A DNA stretch of 18,288 nt, taken from contig JANPLU010000098.1 in assembly GCA_031422435.1 (NCBI GenBank), positions 1-18,288 of the forward strand, read 5' to 3'. Shown here piece by piece: positions 8,055 to 18,288 of this stretch (within the stretch, counting starts at the first letter, position 1; each line of letters starts with the position of its first letter). The notes beneath the pieces were generated by a model. That model did not search any database and was not told the origin of the DNA. It saw only the letters and a program-made list of their open reading frames with translations. The stretch comes from Acaryochloridaceae cyanobacterium VAR_48_metabat_390 (GTDB lineage Bacteria; Cyanobacteriota; Cyanobacteriia; Thermosynechococcales; Thermosynechococcaceae). The translations under genes were made by a program, and so were the position numbers.

Positions 8055-8086
8055 AAATAGCGCTTTGCTATCTCTGTAAAAGCAAC

Positions 8087-8118
8087 AAAAAGGGCAGTCT
8101 TATAAGACTGCCCTTTTT
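8087..8118. terminator. Bidirectional intrinsic terminator between the convergent rpoC2 and fasciclin genes
   Basis: Perfect 32-bp palindrome AAAAAGGGCAGTCTTA|TAAGACTGCCCTTTTT, giving a stem plus a U5 tract on both strands. Confidence 0.85.
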
Positions 8119-8159
8119 ATTGGCTTTGGTTTGTACGGATGAAGCGTTTTAACTCAGAA

Positions 8160-9138: not shown

Positions 9139-11838
9139 TTAGGCTTTGATGCCTTTGACTGTAACTTTATTTAGGGAAATCTCTGATTCAATTTTTTCTT
9201 TTGCTAGTGGGGAACTTTTTTGCTTTTGAAAGATAAGCTGATTTTCTTGCCAGTCCACCTGGATTGTGTCCCCTTCGGTAAAGGCTTGCTCTAGGAGCTT
9301 GGTGGCGATCGCATTTTCTAACTCCCGCTGAATCGCCCGTTTAATCGGTCGTGCGCCATACACAGGGTCATAGCCTGCTTCGACTAGGTGATCGAGGGCG
9401 GCTTCAGAGAGATGCAGCTTAACTTTTTGCTCAGAGAGCAATCGCTCTACTCGCTTGAGCTGGATGCCGACAATCTGGCGCAGGTCTTCACGTTTCAGGG
9501 AATGGAACAGGATGACGTCATCGACGCGGTTGAGGAATTCGGGACGGAAGTGCGATCGCAGTACGCCCATGACCCGCTTCTCCATTTCGTCGTAGCGGCT
9601 GTCATCTCCGCCAAACTCGAGGATGTGGTCGCTGCCGATGTTGCTGGTCATAATAATGACGGTATTGCAGAAATCGACGGTACGACCTTGAGAATCGGTG
9701 ATGCGCCCATCGTCTAAGACCTGGAGCAGAACATTGAAAATATCGGGGTGGGCTTTTTCGACCTCATCAAACAAAATGACGGAGTAGGGGCGGCGGCGGA
9801 TGGCCTCAGAAAGCTGACCGCCTTCGTCGTAGCCCACGTAGCCAGGGGGTGCGCCGATAAGCCGAGAGATGGCGTGTTTTTCCATGTACTCAGACATGTC
9901 AATCCGTACGATCGCATCTTCTGCGTCAAACAACAGCTCGGCAAGGGCGCGAGCGAGTTCCGTTTTGCCCACTCCAGTGGGGCCAAGGAAGAGGAAGGAG
10001 CCAATGGGTCGTCCCAAATCTTTCATGCCCGCTCTAGCGCGTCGGATGGCGGCAGACACTGAGGCGACGGCCTCTTCTTGACCAATCACCCGCTGGTGCA
10101 GATAAGACTCTAGGGCAAGGAGCTTGTGGCGTTCGGTTTCGAGCAGGCGTGTTACGGGGATGCCCACCCATTTAGCGACGACTTCAGCAATGTCAGCTTC
10201 TGTGACCTGCTCCCGCAGAAGGGTAGAGCCTTTTTCTTGCAGCTCTTGGAGCTGGATTTCCTGTTCTTCGAGTTCCCGCTGGAGTGCCTCCATGCGACCG
10301 TACTTGAGCTGAGCTGCTTTGTTGAGGTTGTACTCGCGCTCGGCTTGGTCAATCTGGACACGGAGCTGAGACTCTTCTTCCTTGAGGTGATTAATGCAGT
10401 CTAAAACCTGTTTTTCGCCCTGCCACTGCGCTTCAAGGGACTGCTTTTTAGGGTTTAGCTCGTCAATTTCTTGTACGACCCGCTCTAAGCGCTCTAAAGA
10501 AGACTGAAACGGTGCGCCAGTTCTTGCGCGGGGTGCCTCTTGTTCTAGAGACAGCTTTTCCATCTCTAGCTGCATGAGGCGACGCTCAATCACCTCCAAC
10601 TCCCCAGGTTTTGAGGTCATTTCCATCTTGAGCTTTGCAGCAGCTTCGTCTACAAGATCGATCGCCTTATCGGGCAGAAAGCGATCGGTAATGTAGCGAT
10701 TGGAGAGTACCGCAGCGGCAACCAACGCCGAGTCAGTGATTTTGACATTGTGGTGAATCTCGTAGCGATCTTTTAGCCCCCGCAAAATGGAGATGGTGTC
10801 TTCTACATTGGGCTGGGCAATGAGCACCTGCTGGAAGCGACGCTCTAGGGCGGCATCTTTTTCAATGTATTTGCGGAATTCATCTAGGGTGGTGGCTCCA
10901 ATACAGCGCAGTTCTCCCCGTGCCAGCATGGGCTTAAGCAGGTTGCCTGCATCCATATTGCCCTGGGTGGCTCCGGTACCCACGACGGTGTGCAGCTCAT
11001 CAATGAACAATACAATCTGCCCGTCGGAGTCCATCACTTCTTTAAGTACGGACTTGAGACGGTCTTCAAATTCGCCCCTGTACTTAGCTCCGGCAATGAG
11101 GCTACCCAAGTCAAGGGAAATGAGCTGACGGTTTTTGAGTGATTCCGGCACGTCGCCTTTGACGATGCGCTGGGCGAGTCCTTCGGCGATCGCCGTTTTA
11201 CCCACCCCTGGCTCTCCAATTAGCACCGGATTGTTTTTGGTTCGTCGAGACAGCACCTGAATGACGCGACGCACTTCTTCATCGCGCCCAATCACAGGGT
11301 CAAGTTTGCCTTCTTCGGCTTGGGCGGTCAAATCGCGCCCGTACTTTTCGAGGGCGTTATAGCGAGACTCAGAATCTTGATCGACGACCTTTTGAGTGCC
11401 GCGCATTTTTTGGATGGTTTCTTCGAGCAGGCCACCGTCTAAGCCTACGCTTCGCAGCAGGTTTTTGCCGACGCGCTTGTCTTCTGCAAAGGCCAGCAAG
11501 AAATGATCGACGGAAATAAAGCGATCACCCCGTTCTTCGCGTTCTGCATCGGCGCGGTCTAGGAGCTGGTCGAGTCCACGGCCTAGGTAAATATTGGTGC
11601 CGTCAGTGGTGACGCTGGGCTGGCGCCGCACAAAGTCGATGAGGCGCTTGAGGAGGGCGGCAGGATCTGCGCCTGCTCGCTCTAGCAATAGGGTGGTGGT
11701 TTCATCTTCTTCGAGGAGGGCGATCGCCAGATGTTCTGACTCTAGCTGCTGGTTGCGGTACTTACGGGCTACGTCTTGTGATTTAACAATGGCTTCCCAA
11801 GCCTTATCGGTAAACTTGCCTGGGTCGGTCGGCTGCAT
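9139..11838 (-). CDS. clpB: ATP-dependent chaperone ClpB (cyanobacterial MQPTDP-type, 899 aa)
   Basis: Two AAA+ modules: Walker A GEPGVGKT and GPTGVGKT; Walker B IVLFIDE and [11 protein letters not shown]. Pore loops GAKYRGEFE and GYVG. Long coiled-coil middle domain ([10 protein letters not shown]) typical of ClpB. Confidence 0.97.
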
Positions 11839-11861
11839 GGGGCGTTAGGCTCTGGATAGAC

Positions 11862-11894
11862 CATAGATTGTAGGGTCTAGTATAACAATCTATG
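11862..11894. promoter_or_regulatory. Perfect 10-bp inverted repeat (CATAGATTGT-N13-ACAATCTATG) overlapping candidate clpB -10 boxes
   Basis: Arms are 11862-11871 and 11885-11894. The minus strand contains TATACT and TACAAT hexamers within it, 24-56 bp upstream of the clpB ATG. Confidence 0.45.
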
Positions 11895-12001
11895 CTTAAC
11901 CATTTGAGGGGCATGACGATTTATCGCACTGTATCAACAAAGCCTGTACGAATGGGTTTCTTGCTAAGATTTAGGCAGATGCTGCTACACGAATTCTTGC
12001 C

Positions 12002-12595
12002 ATGACAACGACGCTTAGGCATGTTTCTGATGCTCTCACGCTTGACCTTAGCGGAGTCCCTATTCGTCTGACTCCTTTAGAATTTGAACAGGTCTGTCAG
12101 GGCAATCCAGATTGTCGTTTAGAGCTGACCCGCACAGGAGAACTTATCGCAATGCCCCCGACGGGTTGGATTACTTCTGCGCGGAATTCTGATTTGACAA
12201 CCCAAGTCAGTATTTGGAATCGGGAAACACAGCTCGGTGTTGTGTTTGATTCTTCTGGTGGGTTTATTTTACCGAATGGGGCAATTTACTCTCCAGATGT
12301 TTCTTGGGTTGAAAAATCTAGGCTGGAGGGCGTGACAACGACAGGCTTTTTACCCCTCGCCCCTGATTTTGTGATTGAGCTACGGTCTGCTTCGGACAGT
12401 TTGCCTCAGCTTCAAAATAAAATGCTGGAATACCTTGAGAATGGGGTTCGGCTTGGTTTTCTGATTAACCCATAGGCTAAACAGGTGGGGATTTATCGAC
12501 TAGGGCAACCCGTAGAGTGGCTGGAAGCGATTGCACATGTAAATGGAGAAGAAGTATTGCCAGGGCTAACGCTTGATTTGAAAACGTTTTGGTAG
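12002..12595 (+). pseudogene. Uma2 family (DUF820) PD-(D/E)xK endonuclease with a premature TAG
   Basis: Motifs RLELTRTGELIAMPP, VFDSSGGFILPNGAIYSPDVSW, APDFVIELRS, KMLEYLENGVRLGFLINP. TAG at 12473-12475, after which the same frame continues with the typical Uma2 C-terminus AKQVGIYRLGQPVEWL...EEVLPGLTLDLKTFW* to 12595. Confidence 0.88.
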
Positions 12596-12613
12596 ACGTT
12601 GATCGCTAATACT

Positions 12614-12873
12614 ATGACTCAGATAATCGTTAATCAAATTCTTAGGCAGCTTAAAACGCTTGGGACAGACGAGTTACAGCAGCTCCAACAGTCATTCAAT
12701 CCAGACTGGCTCAGTACCAAACGGCTCAACAAGCTGACTTTCTTCAGACGCTTTTGGCTTCTGGCCTGACTCAGCAGATTAAGCATCCTACGTCTCACCA
12801 GTCTATAGAGCGACGATTGGTTGAAATTCAAGGTAAGCCTCTCTCTGAGACCATCCTTGAGGAACGTCGCTAA
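12614..12873 (+). pseudogene. Small putative antitoxin upstream of vapC, frameshifted by a 1-bp deletion
   Basis: ATG 12614 reads MTQIIVNQILRQLKTLGTDELQQLQQ. Shifting frame near 12690 gives IQSRLAQYQ...LLASGLTQQIK...VEIQGKPLSETILEERR*, ending TAA 12873 directly before the vapC ATG. Span is 260 nt (3n-1). The KPLSETIxEER ending is typical of antitoxins preceding this PIN family. Confidence 0.7.
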
Positions 12874-13339
12874 ATGGCAGTCTATTTTGTCGATAGTAGT
12901 GCTCTTGTTAAGCGATACATCAACGAAACAGGCTCTCAGTGAATATTGAATTTATGTAATCCTGCCTCGAATCACGACATTGTTATTGCCGCGATCGCAG
13001 GGGTTGAAATTACTGCTGCCATAACGCGACGTGCAAAAGGCGGCAGTATTGCCTTAGAAGATGCTGTTGCCCTATGTCATCAATTCAGGATTGATCTAGA
13101 AACTGACTACCAAGTCATTAAAATTTAGTGATCGCATTATTACTGCTGTCATGAACCTAGCTCAAGCCCAAGGATTGCGAGGCTACGATGTAGTTCAACT
13201 TGCGGCGGCATGTGCTGTCAATAGTCTGTGTATTGAGAACAGCTTACCCCTCGTAACGTTTGTTTCCGCAGATAATGAGCTAAACGAAGCAGCGATGAGA
13301 GAAAGATTGAAGGTTGAAAATCCTAATCATTATTTGTGA
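12874..13339 (+). pseudogene. vapC: VapC/PIN-domain toxin with a nonsense codon and a +1 frameshift
   Basis: MAVYFVDSSALVKRYINETGSQ then TGA at 12940-12942 (likely from TGG). Continues ...GVEITAAITRR..., with an extra T at 13124-13126, then ...GLRGYDVVQLAAA...FVSADNELNEAA...ENPNHYL*. PIN acidic residues (DSSA, E, D, SAD) are recognisable. Span is 466 nt (3n+1). Confidence 0.88.
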
Positions 13340-13425
13340 TTGAAGGCGATCGCCGAAATGCAAAGGTATTCACATTAATTGCAAGAGAAGTCGTCGAAAA
13401 CGCCAGCCGAAAAACACTGAAACCA

Positions 13426-13684
13426 TCTGCATACATAACCTAGGCAGCAATAAATATATGCGGAAGCGTATCTGTCTACATGCTAAGAATGAGGATATGA
13501 GCGGATATATCTGCCTATATGACCAAATAAGCTATACGGGTGGATACAATCTACCTATATAGTTAAAACAGAGATCATAGATAGACAACTACCCGTCCAT
13601 ATGCCAAATTGGATGATACAAGTGAGCTGTTATCTATACTAAACAGCATAAAGAGTGATATGAACGGATACTGTCCCCCTAATT
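13426..13684. repeat. Phased array of about 6 degenerate palindromes with ~41-bp period
   Basis: Left half-sites: 13454 ATATATGCGGA, 13495 ATATGAGCGGA, 13534 ATACGGGTGGA, 13575 TCATAGATAGA, 13616 ATACAAGTGAG, 13658 ATATGAACGGA. Right half-sites: 13426 TCTGCATACAT, 13471 TCTGTCTACAT, 13510 TCTGCCTATAT, 13550 TCTACCTATAT, 13592 CCCGTCCATAT, plus weak ones at 13633 and 13674. Confidence 0.7.
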
Positions 13685-13702
13685 CCTAATGAAGAGTTAG
13701 GC
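13685..13702 (+). mobile_element. attI-like integron simple site (core GTTAGGC at 13696-13702)
   Basis: CCTAA-TGAAGAG-TTAGG(C) has the same arms and 7-nt spacing as class 1 attI1 (CCTAA-AACAAAG-TTAGGC). It contains a GTTRRRY core ending 45 bp before the cassette ORF. No attC-type hairpin is seen upstream of it. Confidence 0.65.
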
Positions 13703-13747
13703 TTTACAATTTAACCCACACCAAAGCTGCACATTTCTAATCACTCT

Positions 13748-14503
13748 ATGACCAAGCCCATAGTCTTCGTAAGCCACGCTGCAATTGACTCGGAAATCGC
13801 ATCGGCCTTTAAAGACGATGCTGAAGGAAGCTTCCTTGGATTGTGTGATCTATTTGTTTCTTCAAATCTCGACAGCATTGCGGGCGGCACCGAGTGGATC
13901 AAAGAAATCAAGAGCAATCTTGAGCGTGCTACAATATTTGTTGGTCTTCTTTCCCCAATAGCTATCCAAAGACCTTGGATCTACGTTGAGTTTGGTGCTG
14001 GCTGGATTCGATCAATACCAACAATCGCGGTATGCCACTCAGGCCTTGCTCGCGATCAACTGCCAGTACCCTTATCCAATTTTCAAGCGCTGAATCTTCT
14101 TGACGAGTTGCACCTTCGACATCTGTATGAGCAGATCAGTACAGCCATAGGTTGCAAACTCCCTCTTTCGGACTTCACTGGGTTCGTTGGTAAATACCGA
14201 TTAATTACCGAGGAGCATCGCATTTCCAGGGTCGTTCGCGAGTGGTGGGCGCGCCTGCTTTCATGGAATCCTGAGCTTCCTCGGCTCACCACCGAAGAAC
14301 AGCTTGAAATACTCATACCTGCCGATGCCGATGTAGCATTCCGGCAAATACAAAATTTGTTTTCAAGTGAAAAACTCTTGGATTTTGAATCAAGAGGAAT
14401 AGCAATGGGAACCCCTGTAGGTATGCAAGCGTCAGTCTGGATTGTTCGTAAAGGACAGGAGTATTCGAGACTTCTAATCCCTCCTGCCCCTGGCAAGGCA
14501 TAG
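13748..14503 (+). CDS. TIR-domain protein (TIR_2-like, 251 aa) in an integron gene cassette; probable anti-phage NADase or signalling protein
   Basis: N-terminal VFVSHAAID (TIR FxSY/H box 1), SIAGGTEWIKEIKSNLERATIFVGLLSP, and WIYVE with Glu81 at the catalytic WxxxE position. The C-terminal ~110 aa is not recognised. Confidence 0.85.
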   Translation: MTKPIVFVSHAAIDSEIASAFKDDAEGSFLGLCDLFVSSNLDSIAGGTEWIKEIKSNLERATIFVGLLSPIAIQRPWIYVEFGAGWIRSIPTIAVCHSGLARDQLPVPLSNFQALNLLDELHLRHLYEQISTAIGCKLPLSDFTGFVGKYRLITEEHRISRVVREWWARLLSWNPELPRLTTEEQLEILIPADADVAFRQIQNLFSSEKLLDFESRGIAMGTPVGMQASVWIVRKGQEYSRLLIPPAPGKA

Positions 14504-14526
14504 CCTGTGCAGCAAGGTGCGGTACG

Positions 14527-14584
14527 GTCTAACACCTCGTTGCAGCCAACTGCCTTCGGCGGCGGCTGAACTCAAACATTAGAC
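14527..14584 (+). mobile_element. Integron attC site (58 bp)
   Basis: R'' GTCTAAC (14527-14533, RYYYAAC), 5-nt spacer, L'' GTTGCAGC (14539-14546, with extra-helical base), short terminal hairpin CTGCC-TTC-GGCGG, L' GCTGAAC (14565-14571), 6-nt spacer, R' ATTAGAC (14578-14584, GTTRRRY with G>A). Lies 23 bp after the TIR stop codon. Confidence 0.85.
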
Positions 14585-14794
14585 AGAACAAAATTTTGAG
14601 TAAACTAACTCAATGAAAAAATTGTTTCAAAACCAGCGATCGCATTTGTTTTTGCGACAGCAAGCGATCAATCTACGGTGCCCTAGGGGGAAGGTGATCG
14701 TTTTTACATGAATTGGTAGAAATGCGCTGAGGGTAATCGTATCTGTTTGTGCTGGAGTAGGCGATCGCTTTGGCGCTTATGCCGATGAATGCGA

Positions 14795-15058
14795 TTAGGC
14801 GATGGTGTTATCTTGCGATCTCAACCAATCATTCAAATCGGATAATGTAGAGAAATCTAGTAGTGCCTCGCCCAAAGAATCAAGCTCAGTAAATGATAGT
14901 GCCAGAACCTGCGATCGCGCTTTTTGGGAAACTTTGCCAACCTGACGTTCAAGCATTCGGAGGATCAGCAATCGCTCGTGATCTAAACCCTCCTGTTTGC
15001 CCTCCTGTAGTGCCTCCTGATAGACCTTTGTTTTTTTAAGTTCACTTAAGCCAAACAT
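14795..15058 (-). CDS. Putative nested in-frame small protein (RpnS-like, 87 aa) from an internal start
   Basis: Minus strand reads GAGGAG-attgagcgt-ATG (SD 15073-15068, 9-nt spacer, ATG 15058) at the boundary between the nuclease domain and the C-terminal domain. Confidence 0.5.
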   Translation of the reverse strand: MFGLSELKKTKVYQEALQEGKQEGLDHERLLILRMLERQVGKVSQKARSQVLALSFTELDSLGEALLDFSTLSDLNDWLRSQDNTIA

Positions 15059-15652
15059 ACGCTCAATCTCCTCTCGACTTAGTGCTGGAAACTTATAAAC
15101 AACAATCGTCTCTATCAACTTTATTATCGCTGTAGTCTTAGGATTTGTCTGGCCCTGGGCATCTGTCCTACATAAAAGCAATTGAACTTGAGCGACCGCT
15201 TTCTTGGGGCTTGCCAGAATCAACTGGACTAAGCCAATCCCCAAAGCCCCACTATCCTTAAGCTCATTCAGATAAACGCGATGAACTTGGTCACTGTTCA
15301 ACTGCGCCCGATGTAGATGTTGTTCATCTGTTTCAACCTTACGATTCGGAAATATTACAGCAGCCTTCCAATCCACGGTTTTAGGATGCTGAGCCAAATA
15401 CAGTCCAATTTCGGCAAAAAAACGATGATAAAAATGTTCATCCTTTTGAAACTGAACCTCTACAAACCAAACCGTTTGATCAGGTGCATCCGGCTTAGGT
15501 AGCAATACGCCATCAATCCGAAAAGCCAATTGCTTAATCTCAACCGAACGAAACTCATACCCTTGTGCCCGGTCGGAAGATTGCTCCAATAACTCAAAAA
15601 GGATGCCAGGGTCGGTTTGAAATATGCGATAGAAAATGGAATCTGTTTTCAA
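14795..15652 (-). CDS. Rpn family recombination-promoting nuclease/putative transposase (DUF2887-type) with C-terminal DUF4351
   Basis: Start taken at TTG 15652 (MKTDSIFYRIFQ, the usual N-terminus of this family). Nuclease motifs FRSVEIKQLAFRIDGV and FVEVQFQKD; IETIVVYKFP; DUF4351-like end LSFTELDSLGEALLDFSTLSDLNDWL. Confidence 0.9.
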   Translation of the reverse strand: MKTDSIFYRIFQTDPGILFELLEQSSDRAQGYEFRSVEIKQLAFRIDGVLLPKPDAPDQTVWFVEVQFQKDEHFYHRFFAEIGLYLAQHPKTVDWKAAVIFPNRKVETDEQHLHRAQLNSDQVHRVYLNELKDSGALGIGLVQLILASPKKAVAQVQLLLCRTDAQGQTNPKTTAIIKLIETIVVYKFPALSREEIERMFGLSELKKTKVYQEALQEGKQEGLDHERLLILRMLERQVGKVSQKARSQVLALSFTELDSLGEALLDFSTLSDLNDWLRSQDNTIA

Positions 15653-16079
15653 ACGGTGCAAAGATCCAGAAAAGCTTCTGCTATTTTACTGGGCAACGGT
15701 CGACCAATCCATGGCTTGGAGACATTGTCAATACGACATTCAATCATTCAGATGATCGATGATTGTTGGAATATTTATGGTCGAAAAGGCGATTGTTTTG
15801 TCTTAGATTGGGCCTATCCGTCACCTTTACATGATTTGGTAGAGATATGAACGCCCTGTGGTTTATTGCGGTGAGAGTAATCGTATCTGCTTTTGCTGAA
15901 GAAGGCGATCGCTCTTTAACCTCTGAAGAACAGCCCAATCACCTGTTGCATCCCATTCATCAGTTAAGAAGCCACAGCTTGCTTTTGTAAAGCACCATCA
16001 GACGTTCCCTACAAACTATCGGGAAGTTTTGCCATGAGTTTTGCTGTGTCTGGATTCAGAGTTAGGTAAAGAACCGAAT

Positions 16080-16176
16080 ATATAGCAGTTGCCAACTTCG
16101 TTAGGACATTTTCCTGTTGTGAGAGCTGTAGTCTTATTCCATCTGAATGTCTTAAGCGCTCTGTCTACTGCTATAT
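16080..16176. mobile_element. MITE-like or short dispersed element with bipartite 31-bp terminal inverted repeats
   Basis: Left end ATATAGCAGT-N11-TTAGGACATT (16080-16110). Right end read inward ATATAGCAGT-N11-TTAAGACATT (16176-16146). TA-rich ends are compatible with an IS630-type TA target. Confidence 0.65.
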
Positions 16177-16304
16177 CGGCTTTGGCGATCGTGTCTTACC
16201 CAGTTCGCTCAGTACCATTAACCTTAATACTCGCATCTCAATCAACCAATTTTTAATCGGACTATTGACCAAGCTGAAGTCCCAGAATCCTGATGACAAG
16301 ATAG

Positions 16305-16340
16305 AAAAAGCCGTCGATGGCATCCCCCATTGACGGCTTT
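16305..16340 (-). terminator. Intrinsic terminator of alaS
   Basis: Minus strand hairpin with arms AAAGCCGTCAATGG and CCATCGACGGC followed by TTTTT, about 50 bp downstream of the alaS stop. Confidence 0.75.
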
Positions 16341-16390
16341 GCTCGGGAGATAAACCCTAATTTGTGTGGATTGCCCTGACGTTTCGCTTG

Positions 16391-18288
16391 TTACTTACTT
16401 AAATCATTCATAAGCTGCTGCTTTGCTTGAGCGAATGCCTCTGGCAGCTTGTCAGGGTCACGTCCCCCCGCTTGGGCTAAATTGGGTCGCCCGCCGCCGC
16501 CACCGCCACAGATTTTGGCAATACCGCCAATAAACTTTCCTGCCTGTAATCCTTTTTTAATCACGCTAGGGCTAAACGCCGCCACTAAGCTAACCTTCTG
16601 CGCTTCAGGAGCCGACCCTAGCACCACTGCACCTTCACCGAGTTTTTGCAGCAGTCGTTCAGCCGCTGCTTGTAGAGAAACCGGATCGACTCCCTCCAGT
16701 TCCGCCACCACCAGCTTAAAGTCGCCAATGGTTTCAGCCTGGTCTAAAAGCTGGGTAGATTTTACTAAAGCCAGTTCTGACTTAAGCGCTTCAAGCTGTT
16801 TCTGCGTGGTTTTGAGTTCGGTTTGAAGGTTGGTGACACGCTCTGTGAGTTCTTCGGGCTTGGCCTTAAAGCGATCGCCCAGTTCTCGCACCACGGCATC
16901 CCGTACATTCAGGTACTCCAGTACCGCTGGCCCTGCCACCGCCTCAATCCGACGCACACCAGAGGCAACACCTGTCTCAGACACAATCTTAAAGAGGCCT
17001 ATTTCGGCGGTATTGCGGACGTGGGTACCGCCACATAGCTCCATTGACACCCCAGGTACATCAATCACACGCACCTCGGCACCATATTTTTCGCCAAACA
17101 TAGCGACAGCGCCTTTTGCTTTGGCTTCCGCAATGGGCATTTCATCTGTGTGGGTGTCGTGGGCTTCAGCAATCCAGGTGTTGATTTGGTCTTCGATGCG
17201 CTGAAGTTCTTCGGCGGTTAAACCACGGGTGAAGTTATAGTCGAACCGCAGTTTGTCAAAACCAACTAAAGAACCTGCCTGACCGATGGATTCATCAATC
17301 AGCTTTTTGAGCGCCGCCTGCAATAGATGGGTTGCGGTGTGGTTGGCCTGAGCACGACGACGACAGGCACGGTCAATCTGAGCCGTGACGGTATCCCCAA
17401 CATTGATGGTAGCGCGCTCAATCCGACCGGAGTGAATGAATAACCCCGACTCTTTTTTAACGTCTTCAATACGAACCAGCATGTCACCGCCAGACAGATA
17501 GCCGCGATCGCCCACCTGTCCGCCAGACTCCGCATAAAACGGCGTTTGGTCTAAGGCAATCTGCACGAGGTTTCCGGCTTCAGCTACCGCGACAGATTTT
17601 CCATCCACTAAAATTGCAGTTACTTTTGCCACAGTGGAAGGTTCTGTGTAACCTAAAAATTCCGTTGGGGTAAGCTGTTCTGCCAGTTGACTGAGGGCAC
17701 CCTGTGCGGTTAGGTCAATGATTGCATGGGCACCACGAGCGCGAATCCGCTGCTGCTCCATCTCGTACTCAAACCCTTCTACGTCAACGCTCAGGCCCTC
17801 CTCTTCGGCAATTTCTTGAGTCAGCTCTAGGGGAAAGCCGTGGGTATCGTATAAAAGAAATGCATCATAACCAGAGACCTGTAGGGTTGGTAATAACTCA
17901 TCAGCCAAAAGTCTGCGAGGCTCATTTAGTAAACTACTTTGTGCTAGCCCTTCTTTCTCAAGATCAGTGGTTGGAAGAGGAGGATTTATGCCTTCTTTTT
18001 GAAGAAAAGCTTTTTGTCGCTCTTTTAGTCCTAGTAATTTATCTTTCAAAGCTTGTGAAGATAATGTCTTTGAAGAACTCTCAGAGATGATCTTTTGAAG
18101 AGTTTTCAAGCGCTCATCTTCATTAGGAGCATCTTCCCATTTCTGAAAAAGACTGAGAATCATTCTCCTTTTCATGTCTCTTTCATTATCTTCCTTCAGC
18201 GTTTCAAAAATGTCATAAAGGAGCTGTTCCCCTCTATCAAGAGTTTTCAAGAACTGTGCTTCTTCTCGCTCCAGTTCGGCCTTGATCG
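16391..18288 (-). CDS. alaS: Alanine--tRNA ligase (5'-truncated by window edge), with ~100-aa insertion
   Basis: Frame is open to the window edge ([20 protein letters not shown]). Motifs: [28 protein letters not shown], editing-site NHTATHLL and [16 protein letters not shown]-Ala [14 protein letters not shown]. Confidence 0.98.

Follow-up and report, generated by a model that had tools for sequence, protein, structure and literature searches.

How does a lone gene cassette come to lie behind an attI-like site in a cyanobacterial chromosome, with no integron integrase gene (intI) beside it? The question is raised by the window studied here, that is, the whole stretch of 18,288 nucleotides that was analyzed, which forms contig C98, one of 136 contigs in an assembly of 3.7 Mb. 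Long RNA-polymerase-like ORFs, which we take to be rpoB, rpoC1, and rpoC2, are followed by a fasciclin gene, clpB, a Uma2 gene, a broken two-gene module, the orphan unit itself (an attI platform, a TIR cassette, and an attC site), a DUF2887 gene, and alaS. A split rpoC and frequent HIP1 sites are marks of cyanobacteria; HIP1 occurs here once per 960 bp, and once per 2.7 kb in low-GC DNA. The answer that we favor, and consider reasonably probable, is that the unit is an integron dock without intI which holds one foreign TIR cassette, likely inserted by an IntI at G|TT and by now probably locked in place. The evidence consists of the homology of the platform to intI-linked sites, the geometry of attC, a foreign cassette-borne gene, the absence of intI, and sequence decay. 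The features of the unit and its left border are the following.

12616..13339, plus strand: broken two-gene module at the usual intI position, with an in-frame stop and a frameshift
13345..13354, no strand: left junction, marked by a HIP1 10-mer; the sequence homologous to intI-bearing platforms begins directly after it, and the same junction is present in the relative G001
13355..13425, plus strand: platform leader, beginning ~14 bp from the position of the intI start codon in homologs
13426..13684, no strand: phased half-site array, 13 half-sites, periodicity reached by 0 of 200 shuffles
13673..13702, plus strand: attI core with family L box, insertion, R box, and crossover 13696|13697
13748..14503, plus strand: TIR cassette gene, 251 aa, with a TIR domain at residues ~1-137 and a C-terminal domain without assigned family
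14527..14584, plus strand: attC of 58 bp with R''-L''-L'-R' geometry, matched by a covariance model
14585..14643, plus strand: short stub after attC, ending in a HIP1 8-mer (14636-14643)

A search with positions 13355-13702 and their flanks gave matches in 12 of 61 genomes, and a more typical platform copy matched all ten of the ten genomes of the genus. Of the 31 platform copies, one (L122) neighbors an intact intI and 12 have intI fragments next to them. Upstream of 16 copies, no match to intI was detected at the protein level, and the remaining two are at contig ends. The sequences after the core differ in all 31 copies, with the variable part beginning at G|TT. Most copies are followed within ~110 bp by a co-oriented, often low-GC ORF, and attC matches were found downstream of several of them (e.g., L111, L117, and L125). 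By this homology, 13355-13702 corresponds to the intergenic region between intI and attI in a family of cyanobacterial integrons. The original prediction had asked for upstream homologs linked to intI and variable after G|TT, and the platform copies pass this test. Its proposal that an integron platform was orphaned but kept attI and its first cassette is borne out by the platform homology and by the fact that the TIR gene is cassette-borne elsewhere. A shared sequence of ~100 bp, often near a contig end, was also observed after the attI of several integrons (G000:C129:2420-2582, L022, L124, L138, and L151) and may be a multicopy element.

At the right end of the platform, the motif CCTAA-N7-TTAGGC occupies 13685-13702, and the ATG lies 45 nt further on. 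This motif had been read as an attI1-like simple site, with a 251-aa ORF starting 45 bp behind it. The ORF is confirmed at 13748-14503, and the coordinates of the site are correct; however, it really forms the last part of a platform of 350 bp that carries a phased array. The family L box is found in altered form at 13673-13681, displaced by 7-8 nt through an insertion of that length at the L box, which carries a duplicated CCTAA (13685-13689). Thus, the CCTAA previously assigned as an attI box is a local duplication, and because the insertion duplicates it, the likeness to attI1 spacing has the same origin. The R box is GTTAGGC (13696-13702). The resulting N7 is itself a spacing found in cyanobacteria: in 38 intI upstream regions with an identified core, the L and R boxes are separated by 6 nt in 20, by 7 nt in 17, and by 8 nt in one.

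Neither nucleotide nor protein comparison detected intI or a remnant of it in the window, in agreement with the absence of an integrase upstream of attI that had been noted before. The broken module stands in its place. An earlier label of this module as a decayed vapC is right in that the gene is broken, but the name is not confirmed, Pfam giving 0 families for 12616..13339; from a PIN motif we assume it to be toxin-antitoxin-like. In the complete genome G009, a homolog of the module adjoins clpB and has the same HIP1 at its end; the DNA beyond is unrelated and contains no platform. In G001, the platform follows the module at a junction identical to that of the window. The region beside clpB varies among relatives, which fits the chromosomal hotspot first proposed. 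Separately, a decayed clpB 5' end was observed directly beside a partial platform in four genomes (G000:C57:10487-10764, G001:C540:1315-1601, G003:C331:49931-50214, and G005:C374:1658-1854), which suggests that the region upstream of clpB and the platform were already linked at an earlier time.

The integrase complement of these genomes is mostly defective. The source genome (G000) has four platform matches (C98, C61, C57, and C11), two broken intI genes, and one intact intI, located on C129 (484.5 bits); the array-type intI copies in the assembly are broken. G009 has six platform places, two partial intI matches, and no intact intI.

In the history that we propose, the common ancestor of the source genome and G001 would have lost intI by a deletion at the HIP1 junction. 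The platforms of the two are sisters (support 0.93) with eight unique shared states, and they differ from the L box onward, in the core spacer and in the first ORF. This pair is weakened by the damaged R box of G001 and by the end of its contig ~400 bp later, and the first ORF of G001 is a candidate cassette only. Two more orthologous pairs with a common intI defect (G003_C181/G007_C462 and G002_C150/G009_5419k) also differ in spacer and first gene. The first gene may then have changed in at least one lineage through IntI acting in trans, either by attI x attC recombination or by attI x attI exchange at the L box; the latter is considered in view of the altered core spacer. In attI x attI reactions, top-strand exchange by IntI1 can take place at the L box (PMC4792948). 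An exchange of this kind would carry spacer and cargo together.

It is also conceivable, if rather unlikely, that the platform has been inert since intI was lost, and that the orphans came to differ by RecA-type recombination or transformation between the ~300-bp arrays, together with rearrangements. Exchange between platforms is seen in G003_C181, whose 5' half resembles its G007 ortholog and whose 3' half resembles a G003 paralog (maximum chi-square 31.6, 0 of 5000 permutations); because this copy is mosaic, homologous recombination can also swap downstream DNA without IntI. Platform copies partly cluster by genome, and the sequence that follows the window unit lacks synteny with clpB of G009. 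On the other hand, the window and G001 share derived states as far as the last palindrome and begin to differ only with the L box, which leaves a narrow target for homologous exchange and coincides with the top-strand exchange point known for IntI1. The IntI route and the homologous-exchange route are inseparable on present data. Under the history with an integrase acting in trans, IntI likely inserted the TIR cassette at G|TT.

The array in front of the core (13426-13684) comprises seven direct and six inverted half-sites, which form six palindromic units with a period of ~41 bp. Each half-site copies the attI L box, and the last direct one is the family L box itself. The periodicity of the window array beat 200 of 200 shuffles. 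When an array was called present at no more than 2 of 200 shuffles, 33 of 49 cyanobacterial intI upstream regions contained one, a count that includes related and therefore not independent sequences; five further regions were too short. In a control set of 150 random low-GC windows, a lag identity of 0.5 was attained once. In the 38 regions with an identified core (cores were chosen by hand), copies of the integron's own L box cluster at about +40, 81, 122, 162, 202, and 243 and at -53, 94, 135, 175, and 214. A quick tree of 41 intact IntIs required three changes of the array label, versus 10.1 for shuffled labels.

We infer that the half-sites are putative accessory IntI boxes on one helical face, that is, an expanded form of the DR1/DR2 repeats of attI1, arranged as a ladder at a spacing of four helical turns. 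Alternatively, though this seems unlikely to us, a host regulator or DNA-bending protein rather than IntI might bind the array and control the promoters of intI and the cassettes, which would be compatible with the other readings. The promoter region that separates intI from attI does contain the array, which is missing from one clade of IntIs. However, the half-sites vary between integron types and track each type's own L box, the last half-site is the L box, and in some types the half-sites read TTRRRY, as the R box does. A promoter scan returned one site versus 2.8 expected and so gives no evidence for a promoter; the TTGACA hexamer of the platform family is TTCACA here (13369-13374).

The number of array units varies from ~2 to 7 between copies (L113, L126, L067, and L019), apparently via internal deletion between repeats, and a ~190-bp insertion interrupts the array of one platform copy (L119:7530-8049 in G004:C20). 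Outside the class, a clear array was absent from four non-cyanobacterial genome loci (L235 being borderline), two metagenome loci that share the same upstream sequence, and four loci from another class of the phylum; viral-contig loci were mostly not comparable, and three were too short. Because this sample is too small, confinement of the array to cyanobacteria cannot be claimed. One viral contig (L257) has a strong 21/42-bp tandem repeat array of another kind upstream of its integron integrase. Among the titles returned by literature searches on attI repeats or cyanobacterial integrons, none describes a phased attI array or dispersed cyanobacterial orphan attI sites, although figures, supplements, or subscription journals could contain an earlier description.

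The cassette carried by this dock is an intact ORF whose stop codon is 23 nt from attC. Its protein has 84 homologs and matches PF13676 (TIR_2) at 28.1 bits, with a cut-off of 28. The predicted structure contains a TIR fold (pLDDT 91.5, Z up to 13.7), with fold matches spanning residues 1-137 (Foldseek, VIA-align), and Glu81, presumably the catalytic glutamate of the domain, is invariant in 35 of 35 aligned sequences. The C-terminal domain predicted alone had a pLDDT of 44, and an Atlas feature match of 0.78 was uninformative. The gene is foreign to this host, being found in 0 of 300 other genomes of the class; its GC3 is 0.44 versus 0.54 for rpoC2.

Among 13 homolog loci with 44-61% identity, seven have attC-like sites at the gene edges (L029, L032, L168-L171, and L173) and six do not. 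In L168-L171, the same cassette occurs amid changing neighbors, and two of these loci are near an intI. A plasmid-borne homolog adjoins a helicase gene. Given these attC-like borders, the TIR gene is a true cassette in other bacteria. A metagenome scan with the single TIR protein found nothing; the alignment used instead gave matches.

Comparison of the protein with known defense families gave no good match: PADLOC gave E values of 0.0063 and 0.034, and NCBIfam had none for the window protein and weak ones for 5, 2, and 1 of 35 members. No partner gene was found at the locus. Like ThsB, SpbK, and SPARTA TIR-APAZ, the protein has a predicted TIR fold with a conserved glutamate; it shows no strong match to the described systems Thoeris, SPARTA, SpbK, or retron TIR, has a C-terminal domain without family, and lacks a partner gene. 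We predict an NAD-cleaving protein that serves as an anti-phage effector or as a signal enzyme. A putative role in defense is likely from fold and context, since integron cassettes do encode phage defense (10.1101/2024.07.02.601719, in part).

The attC site at 14527-14584 consists of R'' GTCTAAC (7 nt), a 5-nt spacer, an 8-nt L'', an 18-nt loop, a 7-nt L', a 6-nt spacer, and R' ATTAGAC (7 nt). The L arms pair at 7 of 7 positions with one extrahelical base and the R arms at 6 of 7. A geometry search found it as the sole match in the window; at the same stringency there were three matches in the 3.7-Mb genome and none in 60 shuffled windows. A covariance model built from 15 other attC sites (11 from TIR-homolog loci, one more of the same set, and three cyanobacterial) and trained without the window site scored it at 26.2 bits (E 1.2e-4) on the bottom strand. 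The earlier call of a 58-bp attC 23 bp after the stop codon is therefore sound in geometry and gap and passes the attC model check that had been proposed for it, but its R' is ATTAGAC and not GTTRRRY. The folding energy is weak (z -1.05, bottom strand) and was not used as support. Other cyanobacterial attC matches in this genus measure 81-98 bp, so this short site looks imported. The source genome has six attC model matches at E up to 1; elsewhere in it are a cluster of three attC sites (C95:3334-5286) and single sites at C124:873-958 and C105:277-363, none of which adjoins intI.

The stub behind attC is possibly a leftover of an older cassette, with no homolog among the loci compared. It was observed that HIP1 sits exactly at the left junction (13345-13354) and 52 bp beyond attC (14636-14643). 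Further to the right, a HIP1-containing repeat of ~47-67 bp flanks the DUF2887 gene in two copies (14703-14769 and 15826-15913), with similar copies in relatives. An Rfam search of 11800-16400 returned no match. At 8078-8127, between rpoC2 and the convergent fasciclin gene, lies an inverted repeat with 25-bp arms that is probably a bidirectional terminator.

The crossover triplet of attC (14578-14580) is ATT instead of the conserved GTT. A contig from a second sample of the same study covers 14425-16028 and is identical, including the A at 14578, which is therefore not an assembly error. For IntI1, a first-base mismatch between partner sites cuts recombination 1,000-10,000-fold according to part of PMC2811028, a figure obtained with both paired positions changed and for an enzyme that is not a cyanobacterial IntI. 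From the A at the start of R' and this effect, the cassette would be expected to be poorly excisable. The platform is also eroded: it differs from its family at 46 of 246 conserved columns, and that of G001 at 34 of 237; ten congeneric copies analyzed by leave-one-out have 6-23 differing columns. Small insertions, the changed TTGACA, the altered L box, and the 7-8-nt insertion are among its changes. Later decay of the array, the L-box insertion, and a G-to-A change at the attC crossover may together have frozen the unit.

We regard it as doubtful that the unit is still live, in the sense that the duplicated CCTAA restores a working N7 simple site which the C129 IntI serves in trans. The same genome does encode this intact enzyme, which shares 69% identity with an IntI of the array type; in addition, many cyanobacterial attI sites have N7 spacing, and the TIR ORF is intact. 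However, the C129 IntI belongs to a clade of 11 with no array-positive member (all eight examined were negative, on the quick tree), and its integron has an L box different from that of the window family; cross-reactions between non-cognate attI and IntI are described as generally inefficient (PMC8946536). Platform decay and the ATT crossover speak against activity as well, and no excision joint was present in contigs of three DNA runs, a weak test given that contigs drop rare variants. The service by IntI in trans that the original prediction had considered is thus doubtful for the present unit, although an assembly of 136 contigs may lack a cognate intI. Given the decayed platform, the ATT crossover of attC, and an assembly that contains no intact IntI of the array type, the orphan unit is probably locked in place now.

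Several known systems resemble this locus in part. Like the 65-bp attI1 of class 1 integrons, as far as it is covered in PMC12901181 and PMC8946536, the site has an inverted L-R simple site, a G|TT crossover, accessory repeats upstream, a position beside the intI start (in homologs), and a cassette downstream. In place of the two direct repeats DR1 and DR2 of attI1, it has 12 accessory half-sites, alternating in orientation and repeating every ~41 bp, over a length of ~350 bp, and the window copy has no adjoining intI. Most of 30 marine attI families lacked direct repeats, according to a section of PMC3146285. A complete integron has intI next to attI, which is not the case in the window.

The combination of a single attC and gene with no integrase nearby and an intI elsewhere in the genome is that of a SALIN or CALIN, as these are outlined in parts of 10.1101/030866 and 10.1101/2022.09.11.507474. 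In contrast to a SALIN as an isolated cassette (10.1101/2022.09.11.507474, in part), another att site, the attI platform, lies directly upstream. That a lone cassette inserted at a secondary site of the genome (attG) which resembles attI1 by chance is practically excluded: SALINs are common and cassettes do insert at attG sites (10.1101/2022.09.11.507474), but homology to intI-linked regions of the same genome and its relatives covers the 350 bp upstream. Because the attI platform is retained, the unit would have originated by loss of intI rather than by attG insertion, even though no intI pseudogene is left. In the portions of 10.1101/030866 and 10.1101/2022.09.11.507474 that deal with CALINs, 95% have no recognizable intI pseudogene nearby, and attI could not be searched for.

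The sedentary integrons of Xanthomonas, in the part of 10.1101/2025.06.18.660453 consulted, are similar in that intI is truncated or deleted and the cassettes are frozen; they occupy essentially one ancestral locus beside ilvD, whereas several dispersed platforms per genome are found here. BRiCs (10.1101/2024.07.02.601719, in part) are likewise single-gene cassettes, and the word TIR is absent from that preprint.

Neither the phased multi-box attI array of cyanobacteria nor the orphan attI turned up in the papers searched; SALIN and attI biology itself is already known, and the unit would be a variant of it. This locus and its relatives define, at the sequence level, a recognizable attI type of cyanobacteria, whose long phased array probably consists of IntI boxes. 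Its integrase-less copies are common (16 of 31), and the three orthologous integrase-defective pairs with different first genes are matched cases of cargo change after intI loss, so that one can test directly where integrase-less cassettes come from and what accessory IntI sites do.

More tentatively, cyanobacterial integrons could form a distributed system, in which the array ladder loads IntI cooperatively and platforms stay usable after intI loss, multiply across the chromosome, take up cassettes, and exchange cores and cargo, the cassettes coming via an IntI encoded elsewhere or arriving transiently. Excision of a platform as a circle that reinserts elsewhere is a conceivable way of dispersal. 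If this is true, many integrase-less cassettes would be former or current first-position cassettes at unrecognized attI sites. The attI site is defined for few integron classes and current tools cannot find others; for this reason, integrase-less cassettes are classed as CALIN or SALIN without knowledge of a remaining dock.

The TIR cassette is a candidate single-gene defense system moving between phyla. The ORFs that follow other platforms (26 examined) included one strong defense match, an AbiO/Nhi-like gene in second position behind a platform without integrase in G009 (L108:8028-9563, PADLOC E 4e-170). They also included a kinase with generic PADLOC matches, a restriction-like protein, and a CHAT-TPR protein.
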